From assembly GCA_037310415.1 (NCBI GenBank), contig CP147780.1:1408001-1472000 (forward strand): a DNA stretch of 64,000 nt, read 5' to 3'. This document shows, piece after piece, positions 29,320 to 37,136 of the stretch (position 1 is the stretch's first letter; each line of letters opens with the position of its first letter). This DNA is from Candidatus Atabeyarchaeum deiterrae (GTDB lineage: Archaea; Asgardarchaeota; Atabeyarchaeia; Atabeyarchaeales; Atabeyarchaeaceae). A program made the position numbers and the translations under genes. The notes beneath the pieces are model-generated. The model had not been told where the DNA came from, searched no databases, and saw only the letters and a list, made by a program, of their open reading frames with translations.

Positions 29320-30417
29320 TCACTTCAGCTTGGTCAGTCTCTCTACTCTTTCAGAAATTGATGGATGGCTCATAATTGCACCAGTGAACCTCGAGAATTT
29401 CATCGGGATGAGGTTGTATTCAGCCAGTTTCAGTAGCGCTGCTGAGAGGTGCTGAGGACTTGTGCTTCTTGCCGCGAGCAGATCTGCTTCCAACTCAAAC
29501 ATGCGTCTGATCTTCAGCAGAATCAGATAGACAACTGTGAAAGGAACCATATACTCGACGACTATGAGAGCTAGAAGGATCACTTCATCTGGGATCACAA
29601 AACCGCTAATCAGGAGAAACTCTAGGAAAGCTATTCCGAGAACGGAGAGAAGCAAGTAAACGCCGGCCATTAATGCAACTATGATCAACATGAGCTTCAA
29701 TATGTGATGGTACTTCATGTGTGCAAGCTCGTGGGCAATTACAGCCTCAACTTCGTCCTTGTTCAGCACCTTGTCGATCTCGCCAATGAGGTATATTCTT
29801 CGTTGTCTCTGAGCAAACCCCAACTGGGCCGCATTGATAGCTTTGAATCCTCTGACCGGAACATGGTAGGCGCCTCCTGCTTTGCCTTTAATGCCCATTC
29901 TGTCTTCAAGGTTGTTGATTGTAACAGTCAGTTCCACATCCTCAATTCTTTCCTTCTTCAGGATGGATCCATAAATTCTTGGCATTATGATTCCAACGAT
30001 GAGAATTGCCAGTGCCATTATCAAAAACGTTAAGGGCGTCGAGAAAATGTCCCCACCTGGCTCAAGTAGCCAGAAAGAAGTGGAAAGAAGGAGCAGTACT
30101 GCGAACGGAACTAGGAAAACGATCCTAGAACGCAACTTGTAACTGAAGTAGCCCCTAAAACCTAAGGTAGTCCTGTCGTATTTCTTGTCGAGTCTGTACT
30201 CAAGCGGAGACACAATGACTGCTGATAACAAGAATGCAGCTGCTATGACCCATGTTACAGAAGTAATCTGAAAGAAATCACTATCATAGAACATCGGCAC
30301 GTATAGCATCATGTACGCAAGTCCGATGGCAATGAAAAACCCAAGCAAGAGTATAGTGAACATTCTCAAGCGAAAACCGCCTGAGAAATACTTTTTTGCC
30401 AATTGGTCGTCCATCAA
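29320..30417 (-). CDS. M48 (HtpX/Ste24-like) membrane zinc metalloprotease
   Basis: NAA, AVIAHELAH, ELEAD and SHPSISER motifs; multiple TMs. Confidence 0.9.
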   Translation of the reverse strand: MMDDQLAKKYFSGGFRLRMFTILLLGFFIAIGLAYMMLYVPMFYDSDFFQITSVTWVIAAAFLLSAVIVSPLEYRLDKKYDRTTLGFRGYFSYKLRSRIVFLVPFAVLLLLSTSFWLLEPGGDIFSTPLTFLIMALAILIVGIIMPRIYGSILKKERIEDVELTVTINNLEDRMGIKGKAGGAYHVPVRGFKAINAAQLGFAQRQRRIYLIGEIDKVLNKDEVEAVIAHELAHMKYHHILKLMLIIVALMAGVYLLLSVLGIAFLEFLLISGFVIPDEVILLALIVVEYMVPFTVVYLILLKIRRMFELEADLLAARSTSPQHLSAALLKLAEYNLIPMKFSRFTGAIMSHPSISERVERLTKLK

Positions 30418-30552: not shown

Positions 30553-31482
30553 CTACTCTGGTGCAGGAATTGCGCCGGACTGATCTAATGGATTCGTACC
30601 CTTGCTGATGACATCACGCACTATATCAACTATGATGTTCATTATGGCCTCTCTATATGCAGTATCCACGGCCACACAACCATAAGTTCTGACTCCAAGT
30701 TGCCTATGAATTTCCTCTGGCTTCAACCTTCCTGGTAGATCCTGCTTATTTGCTATACAGATGATCTCCGCGCTAGGTTCAACCCTGCGGCACAAATCAA
30801 GAAGCGGCTTACTACCGACCACGTTCTCAACAGATGAGTCCGTTACAAAGAGAATTAACGCAGCTCCCCTGAGGAAGATCACCCAAGTCTTATGATATTC
30901 CTGCTGTCCAGCTAGGTCCCAAACGATCACCCTAGTTCCATCAATCTGGAAGAGCTTCCGATCTACATCAGCGCCTATCGTAGCGTGGTAAGCTCCTGGG
31001 GATTTTAGGCCCTTAAGTAAGTTGAAAATAGTTGTCTTACCGACGGCAGCACGGCCAGCCAAGGCGATCTTCAGTCGGGAGCCCTGTTTAGCTTTCAACC
31101 CATCCTCAATGGCTCCAACTTGAGATTCTAATACTTTCTCAGCCGCATCGGATAGCGATGTATCGCTTCCAGATAGACTCTTGATCGAGTATATGTCAGG
31201 TCCTTGTTGTGTTTCTTCGCCTCCTTCAATCTGTTCCGGAGTAAGTGACAAGATTGAAGGCGGGGGTGTAGCTTGTGGTGGTGAAGTGGATTCGAGTTGA
31301 GGAACGGTTGCATCTGGCGGAGTTGTGGTGTATGGTGAGACTGTTGGTGTAGTTCCTATTGACTTTTCTATTCTCTCAATTACGTTGGCGTAAGTATTTA
31401 GTGCATTTGCCAGTTGCCTAATGAAGATCTTTGTTGCTCTTGTCAGTTCTCTGAGTTTCTCATCTTTGCGCTCGGAACTCAT
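30553..31482 (-). CDS. Small GTPase (Arf/Rab-like, Asgard type) with N-terminal helix and P/T-rich linker
   Basis: G1 GRAAVGKT, G2 ATIG, G3 WDLAGQ, G4 NKQD, atypical G5 CVA. Confidence 0.92.
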   Translation of the reverse strand: MSSERKDEKLRELTRATKIFIRQLANALNTYANVIERIEKSIGTTPTVSPYTTTPPDATVPQLESTSPPQATPPPSILSLTPEQIEGGEETQQGPDIYSIKSLSGSDTSLSDAAEKVLESQVGAIEDGLKAKQGSRLKIALAGRAAVGKTTIFNLLKGLKSPGAYHATIGADVDRKLFQIDGTRVIVWDLAGQQEYHKTWVIFLRGAALILFVTDSSVENVVGSKPLLDLCRRVEPSAEIICIANKQDLPGRLKPEEIHRQLGVRTYGCVAVDTAYREAIMNIIVDIVRDVISKGTNPLDQSGAIPAPE

Positions 31483-31747
31483 GGATATATCCCTCAGAAT
31501 AGCACATGCAGGTAAGCGCTTTTTGAGCGTTTCTCCCCGCCTGGATGTGCCTCTCTCTGCTCTAACAATGAGTTTGCTAGTATATATTTCAGATCAGCGT
31601 TTGGAGACTCTATCAGATATATCCTTGCGATTTCTGCAAGGAAAGTGTCAATACTCACTCGTGTAAATCAACTGGCGCCAGGACTGCTTGGCAATCATAC
31701 TGTTGCGAAAATCTCCTATTTCGGAGGCAACTTGCTGACACACAGCT

Positions 31748-31763
31748 AAAGCGTTAAATATGC
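31748..31763 (+). promoter_or_regulatory. Putative BRE/TATA for the longin-wHTH gene
   Basis: aaagcgttaaatatg upstream of the GGTGAGG SD and TTG 31832. Confidence 0.35.
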
Positions 31764-31831
31764 TCGTATCGCAGATTATTGTGTAATAGCGATGTTTCAC
31801 TATCAATCATCTTAATCTGGTGAGGATTCTT

Positions 31832-32923
31832 TTGCCTCAAGGAATAATCGTAGTGAAATGGGATGAAGCTGAGGGTACCGTACTTGAATCACAGTACCCC
31901 AAGTCAGTTGAAATCTCGTCCGACGAGATGATGAGAATTTTTACAAGCCATGCGATGGGTGAAGGTAAACCTGGTTTTCTCGCTATGAAGCTTGGCAGCC
32001 TGAACATTGCTAGTTACTACACCGGACTCGCACTTAGAGGACAGCCACAGCACTATGTGGCTTTACTTTTGACGGAAGACGAAGATGCAACGATCTTCGA
32101 GGAACCACTCACCGAAACTTCAGCTGAACTAATGCAGAAAGTTGGTTCCGATAACTTTCCCGTGTTTCTGGAGGAATCATATAAAGGACTCATCGATTAC
32201 CTCACGTTGACTGATGAACAGAGAATAGCTCTGCTCATGAAGGATGTCCGTCGTCGCATGTTGCTTGAGAAACTAGTTGGAGGTCCGCTTAGTAAGATTG
32301 AAGCAAAGGAACTCTTGGAGCAGGAGCTCAAAAGTGAAATAGTTAACTTGGATCTGTTGGTTGAGACCTTCGTTAAGTTGGGAATAATCAGGAAAGCGAT
32401 AGTTGAAGGTATACCGAGCGAAGGTTTATTCCTTCTGAGAGACGTGTTTCCCGTAAGGTTACCTCCAGACAGCGCCGTATTGAAATCCTTGAGAGAGCGA
32501 TTGTCTGAAGACCTTGCAAAGAAATACGAAGATCAAGTGGCAAAGTTCTTTTTAGGTTACAAGGTACTCGAAGAGAGTCCAGACGCAGTCATTAATGCTC
32601 TGACAAATCCTTCACATTACAAGATAATCCAAGCGCTGAGATCAAGCGTATACACGACAAGCGAGTTGGCTCAGCGGATAGGACTTAGTGAGCCCACGGT
32701 GAAGGAGAACGTGAAAACGCTTCAGAAACAGGACATATTGTCCGAGATCTCTGATAGATCAGGAAACAGATACATAGTCATGAAAGCAAGCCCGACATAC
32801 CTATCCTTCTACCCAGAGTATATGATAAACACAATGAGATCAAAATGGGCATCAGGAATGCTTGAGGACTCCATTGCGAAAAAGCACCTAGAGCTTCTTA
32901 AGGAAGCTTACTACGCCCTATGA
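31832..32923 (+). CDS. Longin/uDENN-like N-terminal domain plus tandem winged-helix protein (NPRL2-like architecture)
   Basis: IIVVKWDEAEGTVLESQYP opening typical of uDENN/longin folds; two wHTH-like segments (LVGGPLSKIE..LVETFVKLGII; YTTSELAQRIGLSEPTVKENVKTLQKQDIL). Confidence 0.65.
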   Translation: MPQGIIVVKWDEAEGTVLESQYPKSVEISSDEMMRIFTSHAMGEGKPGFLAMKLGSLNIASYYTGLALRGQPQHYVALLLTEDEDATIFEEPLTETSAELMQKVGSDNFPVFLEESYKGLIDYLTLTDEQRIALLMKDVRRRMLLEKLVGGPLSKIEAKELLEQELKSEIVNLDLLVETFVKLGIIRKAIVEGIPSEGLFLLRDVFPVRLPPDSAVLKSLRERLSEDLAKKYEDQVAKFFLGYKVLEESPDAVINALTNPSHYKIIQALRSSVYTTSELAQRIGLSEPTVKENVKTLQKQDILSEISDRSGNRYIVMKASPTYLSFYPEYMINTMRSKWASGMLEDSIAKKHLELLKEAYYAL

Positions 32924-33008
32924 TATTTATGGAAGAAGAATAACGGTAGGTTTAGCACTGTCCAACATTACTCTCATTTACTTAGTTAATAGGGGTTGAG
33001 CTTTCCCG

Positions 33009-36000
33009 ATGGGGGAAGTAGCGATGTCTAAAGCGAAGAAGATGCTGGCCTCGTTCCTACTAGTTTCTCTGGTCGCCGTTTCATTTTACCAAATATTCTA
33101 TCCGTTCGGCTTAGCCTCTACACTTCAAGGCGCAGCTTCTGGTAACTCTGGTCTTGGTAGTCAACAGTATGTTGGCTACGACCCATACGCTTCGCCGCGG
33201 CCAGTGAATGAAACCGCAATCGGTTACGACATGGGCGGTGGCTCCGGAAGGACGGTGTCCCTGCCAAGTCCGGGAACAAGTGACCTCCAAGTTACTATGA
33301 AGAACGGGTGGTCTGGGAACAGAGTCACCACGTCGATTGCCAACCTCTGGGATCAAAAGAATTGGCTCCCGGGCGGAACATTCGACACAGGAAGTAACAC
33401 ACCTCATGGAACTAATCGCTCCACGTCGTGGTTTACTGTCAGATGGTACGACACTCACAAAGCAAGCGGCTCCAACGCTACGGTCGACCAAGCTAGTTGG
33501 GATAGCTCTGGCAAGTATGTGAAGGCCTCTATGCCATGGAGGTATCTCTATCTCCAAAGCGGAATGCAATCCCGATACTACTATACTGGAGAATATTCAG
33601 CGTGGAATGAGACTTTCATTGTTCCAAGGGGAACAGTCCTCGCAGCAAATCTGTCTCTGGCCTATCATCCTAATTTTGATACGGTGTTGTTCTCGCTTGA
33701 TAGTTTTGCCGTCTTTGTCGAAATAAATGGGCATCGCGTTCTTCAATATGGTCAAGGGTATTTGTATTCCACCGGGCAAGCTAACAAGTGGAATGTTCGC
33801 AACAACCTTAATGTGTTGACAGACTTGGCTCTCAATCCAGTCTTCGATAACCCCACACGACAGAACATTTCAATCTCAGTGGGTGTTATTTACGTCTCAA
33901 GTACTGACTATTTTGCAGGTGGACCTTTTAACACTGAAAATGGTTGTTGGTTTGACAATGTGACTTTGGTTTTGAAGGCTTTAGCTAAGCCTGAGCAACT
34001 CAAGTTGAAACTCGCGGCACCTGGTCTTCCGAACACGAACTGCAGTATCACTTCTCCTTCTCCATCAACATATGGTCAAGGTAGTGGTACCCTGACTGGC
34101 TTCACAATCGGCCCTGCACCAGACTATCAGGACACATACAACTTTGACATCACGTCGAACGTAACATCCCCAGCCACTGGACAATTCACTGCAAACATGA
34201 CTCTATATGCTAGTCGCGCAAAGACCGCTCAAACCGCGTTTGAAAATATAGGAAGCAACGTTGAGTGGAGCGTATCGCTTGCAACGGGTTTCGCGATGTA
34301 CAGCGAACCTGTAAGCAACACAATCTACAGTGGGTACTATTTCAACATCTCAGTTCCACTAGACTGGAACTTCACAACCTGCCTAGACCCCAACTTGCAC
34401 AGCCACAATATTAAGACGGAAGCGAACAACTTCACCATTTCCACGTTCAGCTCTAATTTAATCCTCCGAGTTAATGTCACGAGGATTGGTTCATACTCAA
34501 TTGATGTAAACCATCCGTATGTGATTCATGCTTTGACGAAGAACTATGTTGAAAGTATAGCGGTGTTGAGGAAAAGTGGCGGATCATGGGTTAGTGTGAC
34601 AGACTTCTACCCAACTCAGACTGCTAGGTTCTCAGCTTACATCAGCAATGGGCTGGTTCCAGTCACAACTGGTCTTGCAAATCTGACTTTGCGTGGACCA
34701 GCAACATACGGGGCTTCACCTACGGTGGTATACACGAATACAAGCAAGGCACCAGACATCCATGGTTACGTCAACTTCACCTTCACGTTAACTGGCAGCT
34801 TTGCTGCTGGCAACTACAGTGCCCAAGTTGACTGGGTTGATAACACTCTCGGAGAAGCAGGCTTACTCATGAGCTACTTTAACATAACCCACACGTTCAG
34901 GCTATCATTGGCAGTTCCGGCGACGGGAGACGTTCTTTTTAGACCGAGTGTTATGACGAATCCACCTACTACTGTCAGCTTGGTTGACAACTATACTGGA
35001 GAGTTCGTGACTGCCAACGTGTATGGTAGGGCGAAGTGGGAGACCGCAGGAAGATGGGATCAATTCACTACATACTCGGTGCAAAATGCTACTTACACAA
35101 ATCAAACTAACCTACCAGCTTCTTTGGGTCTTGGCTCAGGGAATTGGCTTGCGGTGAATGCAAGCAAGGAATTCTATGACGATGCGTTTGTGAACAACAC
35201 TTTCTACATTGGCACGCATACCTCCGTGTTCCCAGGTTCAAGTCCGGTCACAATCTACTACACGGAGTCTCAGGCGTTTAGAGTGAACTTACCTAGCATA
35301 TTCTACCAAGACGAAAACTCAAGTGCCATCTTAGGTGCGACATTTGAAGTTGTTGCTGCGGGTTCATCAAACAACAGTCTCGTCAACTGGGGTGTGAGGT
35401 TTTCTGCTGACTACACTAACAATGGGACAGGGTTCTACTCGGGGTCGATAGGTGTTGGAACATTCTCTCTATATGCTAAGGCGATACCTCCTAGTGAGAC
35501 ATATTACGTGTTGTTCAAGTTAAGCAAAGGCTCAAATTATGAGACATCATTCTATACGCTTAGGCTCACGATTTGGACACCTTCATCCTATCTTGATCTA
35601 TGGAGTGGTAACAATCAATACGTTTTCTGGGGAGCGACGGCGCAGATCAAATTGAACTACACGACTCGTTGGTCAAATCCGCCTTACTCTTTGGGGCCAA
35701 CAGCTATTCGCAATTCGACTTCTGCTCCTTCATTTGCGCCACCTTTTGTTTCGGTTGCCTGTGATTGGGGTGGCAGTTGGACGGTCACCCATGACGCGTT
35801 CGACGACCCGCAGGTCTACACTCTTAGCGTCAACACGACTTGGTGGTCTAATCCTACACCGAGTGGCGATAGTGCGGGCACGGCGACGATCCACATCTAC
35901 TTCGTTAGGACCTATTACCAGAACTCCAGCACAGTGCCGATTACAGTGCACATCAAGAGTCTTTCAACGCTGATTGCTGGTGTAGGCTTAGGTTCTGGGA

Positions 36001-37136
36001 ACAGTACGAGTACGTATTCGCGCGATGCTAAGACGGTATATGTGTGGTATAATGATACTCACACGGGAGCATCTGTAGGTGTTGGTGGCGCTACTCTTGC
36101 GTATACTTTCAAATCGTCATTAGGTACGTTTCTCGCATCAGGGTCTCTTATTGCTCATCCGAGCATACAGGGGCAATACAACTTGACTTTGTCCTCTGGT
36201 CTTACGGATCAGCTTCCTGGGACCTACTATCTCTATGTGGGCGGGTGGAAAGACCCATACTATGTGCACCACAACGTGACCATAACGCTTGTAATAAATG
36301 CTATACCGACTGCGCTGTATGGTTTCACGGTTGTTCGTGGTGTCACTCAAACTGGGTCTCAAGTAACGTTGACGCAAGGGGACACATTCACAGTCTACGT
36401 ATGGTATAACGATACTCACAATGGTGGTGTTGTGCTTGGTTCGAGCACAATCATGTATTATTCTTCGCAATTCGGATTCGGGTACGCGACGCAAGTTGTT
36501 CCTGGTGAATACAGTGTGTCATTTACGGCTAGTGCTGCAGGGGATTGGCTAATTACATTCAATGCAACTGCCAGCAAATATGCTCTCTCAACATTGCCAA
36601 TCAGAATCATCGTTAATGCTCCACCGTCCTTCAGCTTGGCAGCGGTGTTGCTGGTGGGCTTTGGTGGAGGCGGTATTGTTGTTCTTGGTGTGGTTGGTTG
36701 GCTTCTTGTGAGGCGTAGGCGAATACCTTTTGTGATAAAGAAGATTGATGAGACTTTGAGGATCATCACTAAGGGTGAACATGGGAAGGCGTCTGCTGTT
36801 CCGCTGAGGTCTAGGGAAGAGGCAGTTGTTGGCATCACTCAGGATAGGATTGATGCCTTTGCAAAGAGAAAGCCTCTGCCAGGCGCTCCAGAAGGAAAAG
36901 CTAAGGAGGAGGCTCCTAAGGGTCCGGAGGTGGAGGCTGCTTTGAAGACTGAGCTGGCGCAGGTCGAGGGGAAAGAGGAGCCTGAGGAAGGTATTGAAGA
37001 GGTTGAGATGGATACCTTGGATCAGGAGCTTGGGCGCATCGAGGGTGTTGAGGATAAGGAGAACCTTCCTGATGGAGCGAAAGAAGTGCGCGATGTCATT
37101 GAGAAGTATAAGGAAGGTAAGAAGAAGAAAAAGTAA
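33009..37136 (+). CDS. Giant cell-surface glycoprotein: signal peptide, beta-rich Ig-like repeats, single TM, charged cytoplasmic tail
   Basis: N-terminal hydrophobic segment, S/T/Y/N-rich body with many NxS/T sequons, repeated VYVWYNDTH(T/N)G, TM followed by RRRRIPFVIKKI, and a roughly 140-aa E/K-rich tail. Confidence 0.85.
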   Translation: MGEVAMSKAKKMLASFLLVSLVAVSFYQIFYPFGLASTLQGAASGNSGLGSQQYVGYDPYASPRPVNETAIGYDMGGGSGRTVSLPSPGTSDLQVTMKNGWSGNRVTTSIANLWDQKNWLPGGTFDTGSNTPHGTNRSTSWFTVRWYDTHKASGSNATVDQASWDSSGKYVKASMPWRYLYLQSGMQSRYYYTGEYSAWNETFIVPRGTVLAANLSLAYHPNFDTVLFSLDSFAVFVEINGHRVLQYGQGYLYSTGQANKWNVRNNLNVLTDLALNPVFDNPTRQNISISVGVIYVSSTDYFAGGPFNTENGCWFDNVTLVLKALAKPEQLKLKLAAPGLPNTNCSITSPSPSTYGQGSGTLTGFTIGPAPDYQDTYNFDITSNVTSPATGQFTANMTLYASRAKTAQTAFENIGSNVEWSVSLATGFAMYSEPVSNTIYSGYYFNISVPLDWNFTTCLDPNLHSHNIKTEANNFTISTFSSNLILRVNVTRIGSYSIDVNHPYVIHALTKNYVESIAVLRKSGGSWVSVTDFYPTQTARFSAYISNGLVPVTTGLANLTLRGPATYGASPTVVYTNTSKAPDIHGYVNFTFTLTGSFAAGNYSAQVDWVDNTLGEAGLLMSYFNITHTFRLSLAVPATGDVLFRPSVMTNPPTTVSLVDNYTGEFVTANVYGRAKWETAGRWDQFTTYSVQNATYTNQTNLPASLGLGSGNWLAVNASKEFYDDAFVNNTFYIGTHTSVFPGSSPVTIYYTESQAFRVNLPSIFYQDENSSAILGATFEVVAAGSSNNSLVNWGVRFSADYTNNGTGFYSGSIGVGTFSLYAKAIPPSETYYVLFKLSKGSNYETSFYTLRLTIWTPSSYLDLWSGNNQYVFWGATAQIKLNYTTRWSNPPYSLGPTAIRNSTSAPSFAPPFVSVACDWGGSWTVTHDAFDDPQVYTLSVNTTWWSNPTPSGDSAGTATIHIYFVRTYYQNSSTVPITVHIKSLSTLIAGVGLGSGNSTSTYSRDAKTVYVWYNDTHTGASVGVGGATLAYTFKSSLGTFLASGSLIAHPSIQGQYNLTLSSGLTDQLPGTYYLYVGGWKDPYYVHHNVTITLVINAIPTALYGFTVVRGVTQTGSQVTLTQGDTFTVYVWYNDTHNGGVVLGSSTIMYYSSQFGFGYATQVVPGEYSVSFTASAAGDWLITFNATASKYALSTLPIRIIVNAPPSFSLAAVLLVGFGGGGIVVLGVVGWLLVRRRRIPFVIKKIDETLRIITKGEHGKASAVPLRSREEAVVGITQDRIDAFAKRKPLPGAPEGKAKEEAPKGPEVEAALKTELAQVEGKEEPEEGIEEVEMDTLDQELGRIEGVEDKENLPDGAKEVRDVIEKYKEGKKKKK

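Follow-up and report, generated by a model that had tools for sequence, protein, structure and literature searches.

In eukaryotes, pairs of longin proteins such as NPRL2-NPRL3, FLCN-FNIP, and C9orf72-SMCR8 handle Rag and Arf GTPases. NPRL2 and NPRL3 (Npr2 and Npr3 in yeast) are the longin subunits of GATOR1/SEACIT, the GTPase-activating protein (GAP) for RagA/Gtr1, and carry an N-terminal longin domain followed by winged-helix C-terminal domains. In Asgard genomes, longin or roadblock proteins and eukaryote-like small GTPases are encoded by the dozen. Work from 2020 reported NPRL2-like longin proteins in these archaea as a domain family (Liu et al., bioRxiv 10.1101/2020.10.19.343400). A 2025 paper raised the question of which GTPases are the partners of GAP-like longins in Asgard archaea (PMC12290439), and a 2024 paper found that GTPase genes of MK-D1 are generally not in operons with longin genes and stated that genome layout makes it difficult to assign partners (PMC10933270). 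Here we analyze a stretch of 64,000 nucleotides (the window; positions 1,408,001-1,472,000) of the closed, 2.76-Mb genome of Candidatus Atabeyarchaeum deiterrae, which has ∼25 small-GTPase genes. In the window, a gene for an NPRL-like protein (P0002, the adaptor) stands between the genes for a small GTPase (P0001) and a giant surface protein (P0003). The association of these genes across Asgard archaea is real and far beyond chance, and we lean toward reading it as a membrane-protein/adaptor/GTPase module specific to this phylum.

P0002 is encoded on the forward strand (open reading frame [ORF] 31820-32923; its homologs begin at codon 5, position 31832). An AlphaFold2 model of P0002 from a 30-sequence alignment (predicted local distance difference test [pLDDT], 89.6) revealed a longin of beta-beta-alpha-beta-beta-beta-alpha-alpha topology at residues 8-127, winged helices at 132-214 and 254-330, and C-terminal helices. 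The longin domain, as delimited by model topology and the VIA match, covers amino acids 5-130 (31832..32209). The two winged-helix domains and the helical linker between them occupy 32213..32809, as placed by the model and by helix-turn-helix (HTH) profiles, and the C-terminal helices, part of the predicted docking site described below, comprise amino acids 331-367 (32810..32920). The top nine Foldseek matches in the PDB were yeast Npr2/Npr3 and human NPRL2/NPRL3 (322-347 columns; E, 1e-5 to 1e-4; probability, 1.00), with FLCN next in the ranking; template modeling scores were low (0.20-0.25) owing to differing domain orientation. In VIA-align, the longin domain matched GATOR1 chain 8fw5_B with a Z score of 12.1 over 124 residues (root mean square deviation, 2.9 Å), and SNARE, coat, and TRAPP longins ranked lower (Z, 8-10.5). 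The longin fold anticipated by a preliminary description of the locus, made from the sequence, is thus borne out in the model; its label "uDENN-like" has to be dropped, since the fold is a longin plus two winged helices without a DENN module.

By sequence, less can be said about P0002. A Pfam scan listing matches up to an E value of 0.1 found a winged helix at residues 256-312 only (HTH_24, 5.7e-6), and NCBIfam assigned the second winged helix to the ArsR type (1.3e-6). Sequence-level homology to NPRL2/3 or to solved longins was rejected, as profiles returned only HTH regulators or chance-level matches (E > 0.05); an arginine finger can therefore not be mapped residue by residue. As modeled, P0002 has the NPRL2/3 architecture, and family membership by sequence cannot be called. 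Homologs of P0002 are confined to Asgard archaea, where they were found in 310 of 400 genomes, often in at least five copies. Families f5 to f11, which include closed genomes of 3.1-3.3 Mb, mostly had no adaptor-family match with this profile (0-1 per family). No fused longer forms were detected at an E value of 1e-10 among proteins of 644-2000 amino acids, which is weak evidence. In family f12 (L121-L123), the NPRL-like proteins measure 525-580 amino acids, have a C-terminal extension, and are encoded directly downstream of a GTPase.

How closely does P0002 resemble the described systems? Its best near-full-length structural matches are NPRL2 and NPRL3, with which it also shares an association with a small GTPase, here by gene linkage. 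In this copy, an arginine of the beta4-beta5 loop (R73) falls approximately where NPRL2 carries its arginine finger, Arg78. The protein differs from NPRL2 and NPRL3 in lacking detectable sequence similarity, in that the arginine is not conserved in the Asgard family, and in that no DEPDC5-like partner was seen. Moreover, both Pfam and Foldseek place the linked GTPases with Arf/Roc-like rather than Rag-like proteins, and the Asgard protein is predicted to dock on a membrane-protein tail, for which NPRL2/3 are not known. With C9orf72-SMCR8 and FLCN-FNIP, P0002 has the longin fold in common but no DENN domain. Family-wide conserved positions of its longin domain are P6, W14, G19, P27, H44, G47, S65, and G69, and the W14-D15-x3-G19 arrangement at the beta1-beta2 hairpin parallels W33-D34 ... 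G38-P39 of C9orf72, a WD ... GP motif needed for GAP activity (PMC12290439). The GP motif found in longin GAPs at the start of beta2, beside the catalytic pocket, is not reproduced in the adaptor alignment (A1), where the invariant G19 is followed by T, A, V, or M but in no case by P. All 20 members linked to a GTPase retain D15, and in the unlinked Loki-type clade T is the usual residue at this position; this clade is one lineage, so the pattern is a hint and not a statistic. The proteins described by Liu et al. (10.1101/2020.10.19.343400) are likewise Asgard-specific GTPase-regulator folds, sometimes in an operon with a GTPase, but that work dealt with domain architectures and a different operon (LAMTOR1-like/Rab-like GTPase/DENN). 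Our literature search, in which coverage of subscription journals was incomplete, found no description of the giant-protein pairing, the juxtamembrane motif, or this GTPase pairing.

The giant protein P0003 (1375 amino acids; 33009-37136, forward strand) starts 85 nucleotides past the P0002 stop codon. It has an N-terminal hydrophobic segment or signal and a large ectodomain (amino acids 1-1217; 33009..36659, by composition and sequons), a single C-terminal membrane anchor (1218-1240; 36660..36728, by hydropathy scan and tail alignment A2), and a cytoplasmic tail of 135 amino acids. The single-pass layout and spacing given in the preliminary description hold, with a tail slightly shorter than its ∼140 residues. 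All 37 N-x-S/T sequons lie in the ectodomain (∼19 expected from composition), which is rich in Thr, Ser, and Asn and had no Pfam or NCBIfam match. Attempts to identify the ectodomain through the Atlas gave only weak leads to Ig-like Big_1/CARDB surface proteins (scores ≤0.77). Directly inside the membrane lies a strongly basic motif (amino acids 1241-1288; 36729..36872), which reads I-P-F-V-I-K-K-I-D ... K-G ... R-S-R-E-E in P0003, its invariant Pro being residue 1240. Alignment A2, a motif hidden Markov model (HMM), and complex prediction mark this segment as the predicted adaptor-binding site. Beyond it, the acidic, Glu/Lys-rich distal tail (1289-1375; 36873..37136 with the stop codon) is kept only among Atabey relatives. 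In alignment A2, 34 proteins from several Asgard classes with unrelated ectodomains have the motif after the anchor in common, with a rough consensus of [KR]-[YFI]-P-x-x-V-[RK]-K-I ... K-G-K ... R-x-R-[ED]-[ED]-[IL] and one invariant Pro.

The pairing of adaptor and giant genes is widespread. We fetched 78 loci across Asgard classes by means of a conserved family peptide, and in these, 59 of 79 NPRL-like genes directly adjoin a large type I protein with a C-terminal anchor. The background of such proteins is 48 of 2881 genes in the source genome (1.7%) and 11 of 440 distant genes in the loci (2.5%), so the linkage that the preliminary description had put forward is conserved well above it. Many of the remaining NPRL-like genes, those without a giant neighbor, stand at contig ends. 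The motif itself follows the adaptor. Up to an E value of 10, the motif HMM found exactly three ORFs in the source genome (1375, 1604, and 610 amino acids), and each adjoins one of its three full-length NPRL-like paralogs. The same pairing was seen for 2 of 2 in an Atabeyarchaeia-1-like genome (G003), 3 of 3 near an A1-like gene in a 4.4-Mb single-contig Loki-type genome (G134), and 1 of 2 in an Odin genome. Loki-type loci usually follow the order short-chain dehydrogenase, one to three large type I proteins, NPRL-like protein, TrmB-like winged-helix/coiled-coil protein of ∼650 amino acids, and cupin. The ∼650-amino-acid protein (for example, L063:11106-13058) is encoded directly past the NPRL-like gene in these loci. 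Relatives of it occur in the source genome at 187808-188584 and 2111954-2115442, near module copy B, and 2 kb from such a relative lies a longin-only relative of the adaptor (2109477-2109938).

To the conserved pairing, structure prediction adds a candidate interface. We modeled P0002 together with residues 1235-1288 of P0003, the portion of the motif on the cytosolic side, using our own unpaired alignments and three controls. The predicted complex scored an ipSAE of 0.82 (three runs, 0.81-0.85) against 0.00 for the best of the three controls, in agreement with the coupling suggested in the preliminary description. A mark of 0.82 is reached by 58 of 80 solved complexes and by 2 of 110 mismatched pairs, counts that are rough because our own alignments were used. 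The runs shared at least 96% of contacts, with partner pLDDT of at least 86. On the adaptor side, the predicted interface comprises residues 153, 208-221, 240-250, and 328-364, that is, the wing of the first winged helix, the linker, and the C-terminal helices. The C-terminal half has 21 invariant or near-invariant residues, and 10 of them lie in this interface (3.2 expected; hypergeometric P = 2e-4): the invariant D208, P215, F244, P332, and L360 and the near-invariant F330, E333, Y334, A353, and L357. Conserved motif residues also fall within it. We know of no similar solved complex, so recall of a memorized structure by the model is unlikely.

On the other side of the adaptor gene lies P0001, a complete gene of 309 codons on the reverse strand (30553-31482, by ORF list and Pfam). 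The divergent intergenic region spans 31483..31831 by ORF coordinates, and the distance from start to start is 337-349 bp, depending on whether P0002 begins at 31820 or 31832; the gap of about 350 bp described earlier is therefore correct. From its sequence, P0001 is a Ras superfamily small GTPase: its motifs are G1 GRAAVGKT at residue 143, G3 DLAGQ at 189, G4 NKQD at 245, and a G5-like VAVD at 270, and profile matches include Pfam Roc (3.6e-16), Arf (1.6e-13), and Ras (1.7e-11), all three above their cutoffs, and TIGR00231 (3.6e-17). The Arf/Roc/Ras-like G domain, with the catalytic Gln in DLAGQ, covers amino acids 136-309 (30556..31077). The preceding 135 residues (31078..31482) form an amphipathic helix and a Pro/Ser/Thr-rich linker, as judged from alignment and composition; Pro, Ser, and Thr account for 50% of the linker, and the extension had no Pfam match.

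The GTPases linked to NPRL-like genes belong to one subfamily with conserved TDSxxxNV and ANKQDLP motifs. Most are ∼285 amino acids long and begin with a folded N-terminal domain of ∼110 amino acids. In the model of a paralog from the source genome (L009:8079-8966; 295 amino acids), this domain has the same longin topology as the adaptor (pLDDT, 75-93), and 16 linked relatives carry an N-terminal longin before the G domain. The G domains of P0001 and of the longin-fused relatives are clearly of the same subfamily, and the nearest matches of the paralog's G domain are Asgard ArfR1 and Arf/Arl structures. In a region around another paralog of P0001, 54% identical (L011), the neighbors were a NIF3-like protein and a protein without a family, and no module genes. 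A tandem array of three longin-GTPase genes from this subfamily occurs elsewhere (L127; G116:C1:3325075-3328022), without an NPRL-like gene in the vicinity.

Is the GTPase linked to the adaptor as the giant protein is? Cross-matching whole-genome matches of the adaptor and of the P0001 G domain revealed direct adjacency in families f1, f4, f12, f13, and f14. The fetched regions bear this out and add Thor (f31; 4 of 5 loci picked by GTPase rank only), and so this part of the predicted linkage is likewise conserved. A complete Thor genome has two full-length adaptors and a complete f14 genome has one, each with a subfamily GTPase within ∼0.5 kb. Of 9 full-length adaptor genes in five complete genomes, 8 have a subfamily GTPase, a motif protein, or both as neighbors. 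In the adaptor tree, which is a quick tree, at least five well-supported clades include GTPase-linked members. Full trios were found in Baldr, in Atabey relatives, and twice in the source genome. The Baldr locus encodes, in this order, a GTPase of 288, an NPRL-like protein of 398, and a giant of 2026 amino acids. In the second trio of the source genome, the giant (1604 amino acids), the NPRL-like protein (374), and the longin-GTPase paralog (295) are encoded on one strand by overlapping or near-abutting genes. The two Atabey adaptors fall in different well-supported clades of the tree, which indicates that both trios are old. The longin-GTPase paralog is immediately followed by a gene of 138 codons without a Pfam family (L009:8981-9397; 2352981-2353397 of the genome), homologs of which occupy the same place after NPRL-like/GTPase pairs in f13 and f14 (L124, L126, and L128); it looks like a conserved fourth gene. 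The third module copy of the source genome (L010; 186001-200500) has a longin-only paralog of 148 amino acids directly upstream of an NPRL-like gene of 388 codons and contains no GTPase; conceivably, the longin-only protein forms a heterodimer with the NPRL-like one.

Several observations weigh against a module of three parts. Loci from related genomes are not independent samples. No sequence match of the P0002 family to Pfam NPR2 (PF06218) or NPR3 (PF03666) was found by hmmscan at E values up to 0.1, and PDB-sequence profile searches with A1 and with a longin-only alignment (A4) retrieved no NPRL, FLCN, or other longin chain. Residue R73, which had been taken for a candidate arginine finger, is not conserved: its column has R in 15, K in 6, and E in 6 of 30 sequences, the arginine is absent from several GTPase-linked clades, and this variability rules it out as a family-wide catalytic residue. 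The docking score is the model's own confidence, obtained with unpaired alignments of our own, and not a measurement. In f14 and Thor genomes, motif proteins are encoded elsewhere and not beside the adaptor. Loki-type loci, which form the largest clade, and Odin loci do not contain the GTPase, so that the evidence for the three-way link comes from the Atabey and Baldr loci and, beyond these, from transitive pairing. In the window, the GTPase is divergently transcribed, and P0001, its Atabey orthologs, and the 54%-identical paralog have a helix and a disordered linker in place of a longin.

The position of P0001 on the other strand and its lack of a longin domain would also fit a simpler explanation, in which the NPRL-like protein serves the surface protein only, the GTPase of the window is unrelated, and the module has no switch. 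Among the pattern-derived loci, 56 of the 79 NPRL-like genes have a giant neighbor and no GTPase; Asgard genomes hold ∼25 or more small GTPases; and MK-D1 generally keeps its GTPase genes apart from longin genes in operons (PMC10933270). We nevertheless consider this explanation unlikely, because a single GTPase subfamily recurs beside NPRL-like genes in six families and at least five well-supported clades of the adaptor tree, whereas for a family with three to five copies in each genome, adjacency by chance has a probability far below 1%. That one genome has two old trios of paralogs argues in the same direction, as does, at the level of a hint, the retention of D15 in GTPase-linked members. 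The gene arrangement could alternatively reflect a winged-helix transcription factor with a longin sensor that controls the surface-protein gene and that the tail motif perhaps tethers to the membrane until its release. Profiles of DNA-binding HTH domains of the ArsR/TrmB type match the second winged helix (E, 1e-6 to 1e-5), the gene adjoins its presumed target, and Loki-type loci add the TrmB-like protein. Against DNA binding, the family is acidic (isoelectric point, ∼5.2), and the recognition helix and wing of the second winged helix are net negative (mean net charge, -1.7) and variable, with Asp and Glu common. Moreover, the invariant residues of the C-terminal half lie on the predicted peptide-binding surface and not on the DNA-reading face, and the whole architecture matches NPRL2/3, whose winged helices bind protein. 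A transcription factor is thus very improbable.

An explanation that keeps all three parts is a device for biogenesis, targeting, or sorting, in which the tail motif serves as a cargo signal read by the adaptor, delivery or placement is gated by the Arf-like GTPase, and no signal passes inward. By analogy, the logic of an Arf-like GTPase, a longin adaptor, and a short cytosolic motif would be that of Arf with the longin subunits of adaptor protein (AP) complexes and of SRX, the longin of SR-alpha, with SR-beta. The motif directly follows the anchor and is common to proteins with unrelated ectodomains, as sorting signals are, and each receptor gene or group of such genes comes with a single adaptor gene. 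Coat longins such as AP sigma and COPI zeta match well in structure (Z, 8.8-9.5), and the affinity of the paralog's G domain to ArfR1 and Arf/Arl fits as well. However, the loci contain no coat, signal recognition particle, or translocon genes, NPRL2/3 and FLCN rank above the coat longins, and in our prediction the motif is bound by the winged-helix/helical part of the adaptor rather than by the longin. No result here distinguishes the direction of information flow. On balance, we regard a pure sorting device as rather improbable and return to a module in which surface protein, adaptor, and GTPase are coupled.

The neighborhood of the trio contributes little to this picture. An M48 (HtpX-like) membrane metalloprotease (29320..30417, reverse strand; Pfam Peptidase_M48, 7.1e-21) is encoded 135 nucleotides from the GTPase gene, directly downstream on the same strand, as the preliminary description had it. 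It occupies the same position only in close relatives (loci L043 and L044), and M48 paralogs of the source genome are not near the other module copies, which speaks against a protease link beyond the close family. Membership in the module is doubtful and, with co-occurrence in the two closest relatives only, unsupported; the M48 gene is probably a bystander. The flanks hold ordinary metabolism and repair genes (UvrB, Fpg, enoyl coenzyme A hydratase, aldehyde ferredoxin oxidoreductase, and thiolase). Contigs from a wetland metatranscriptome (RNA) library matched the M48, GTPase, adaptor, and giant genes with 100% identity; this is weak evidence of expression, given possible DNA carry-over, and such contigs tell neither strand nor level, parts of the stretch free of contigs being uninformative. 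Run X20, labeled RNA and probably DNA, yielded no contigs matching the stretch. In the best DNA metagenome run, contigs covering the 5' portion of the giant gene (33027-33966) break up into fragments of 290-360 bp, and word depth rises from 13.7 upstream to 60-75 over the gene (33027-37134). The depth jump and contig breaks may reflect strain variation or a gene common to co-occurring relatives.

How might the three proteins work together? In the mechanism that we propose, the giant type I glycoprotein would span the membrane once and offer its conserved basic motif just inside. The acidic NPRL2/NPRL3-like adaptor would clamp this motif with its C-terminal winged-helix and helical region, leaving the conserved longin face (W14, D15, G19, P27, H44, and G47) free to engage the small GTPase, on which it would act as a regulator or effector platform. 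Such a scheme would mirror the handling of Rag and Arf GTPases by the eukaryotic longin pairs. In most lineages, the longin of the partner GTPase could itself pair with that of the adaptor, an attractive arrangement after the model of NPRL2-NPRL3 or FLCN-FNIP; in the window, the helix and disordered linker would take its place. The preliminary description had proposed the trio as a circuit from surface protein to GTPase. Fold, conserved linkage, and predicted tail-adaptor docking are in favor of this proposal; the contact between adaptor and GTPase, any biochemical activity, and a choice between outside-in signaling and inside-out positioning or sorting are steps that we infer. As a more tentative suggestion, an Asgard forerunner of the logic of small GTPase, longin adaptor, and cytosolic tail motif could couple large, variable surface proteins to an internal switch. 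Eukaryotes use this logic in Arf with AP adaptors and in Rag with GATOR/Ragulator.

Longin-type GTPase regulators are a known class; what is new here is the motif, the giant-protein pairing, and the pairing with one GTPase subfamily. The module offers a match between one adaptor family and one GTPase subfamily, together with a defined membrane-proximal docking motif of 50 residues, as predicted. It also connects with the large surface proteins that have been observed on Lokiarchaeia in culture (PMC9834061). The large, variable surface proteins of the module are candidates for cell-cell contact. If our reading is true, the NPRL-like family would be the first Asgard longin protein for which a membrane anchor point and a cognate GTPase are identified, and the module would bear on how membrane-to-GTPase coupling arose before eukaryotes.

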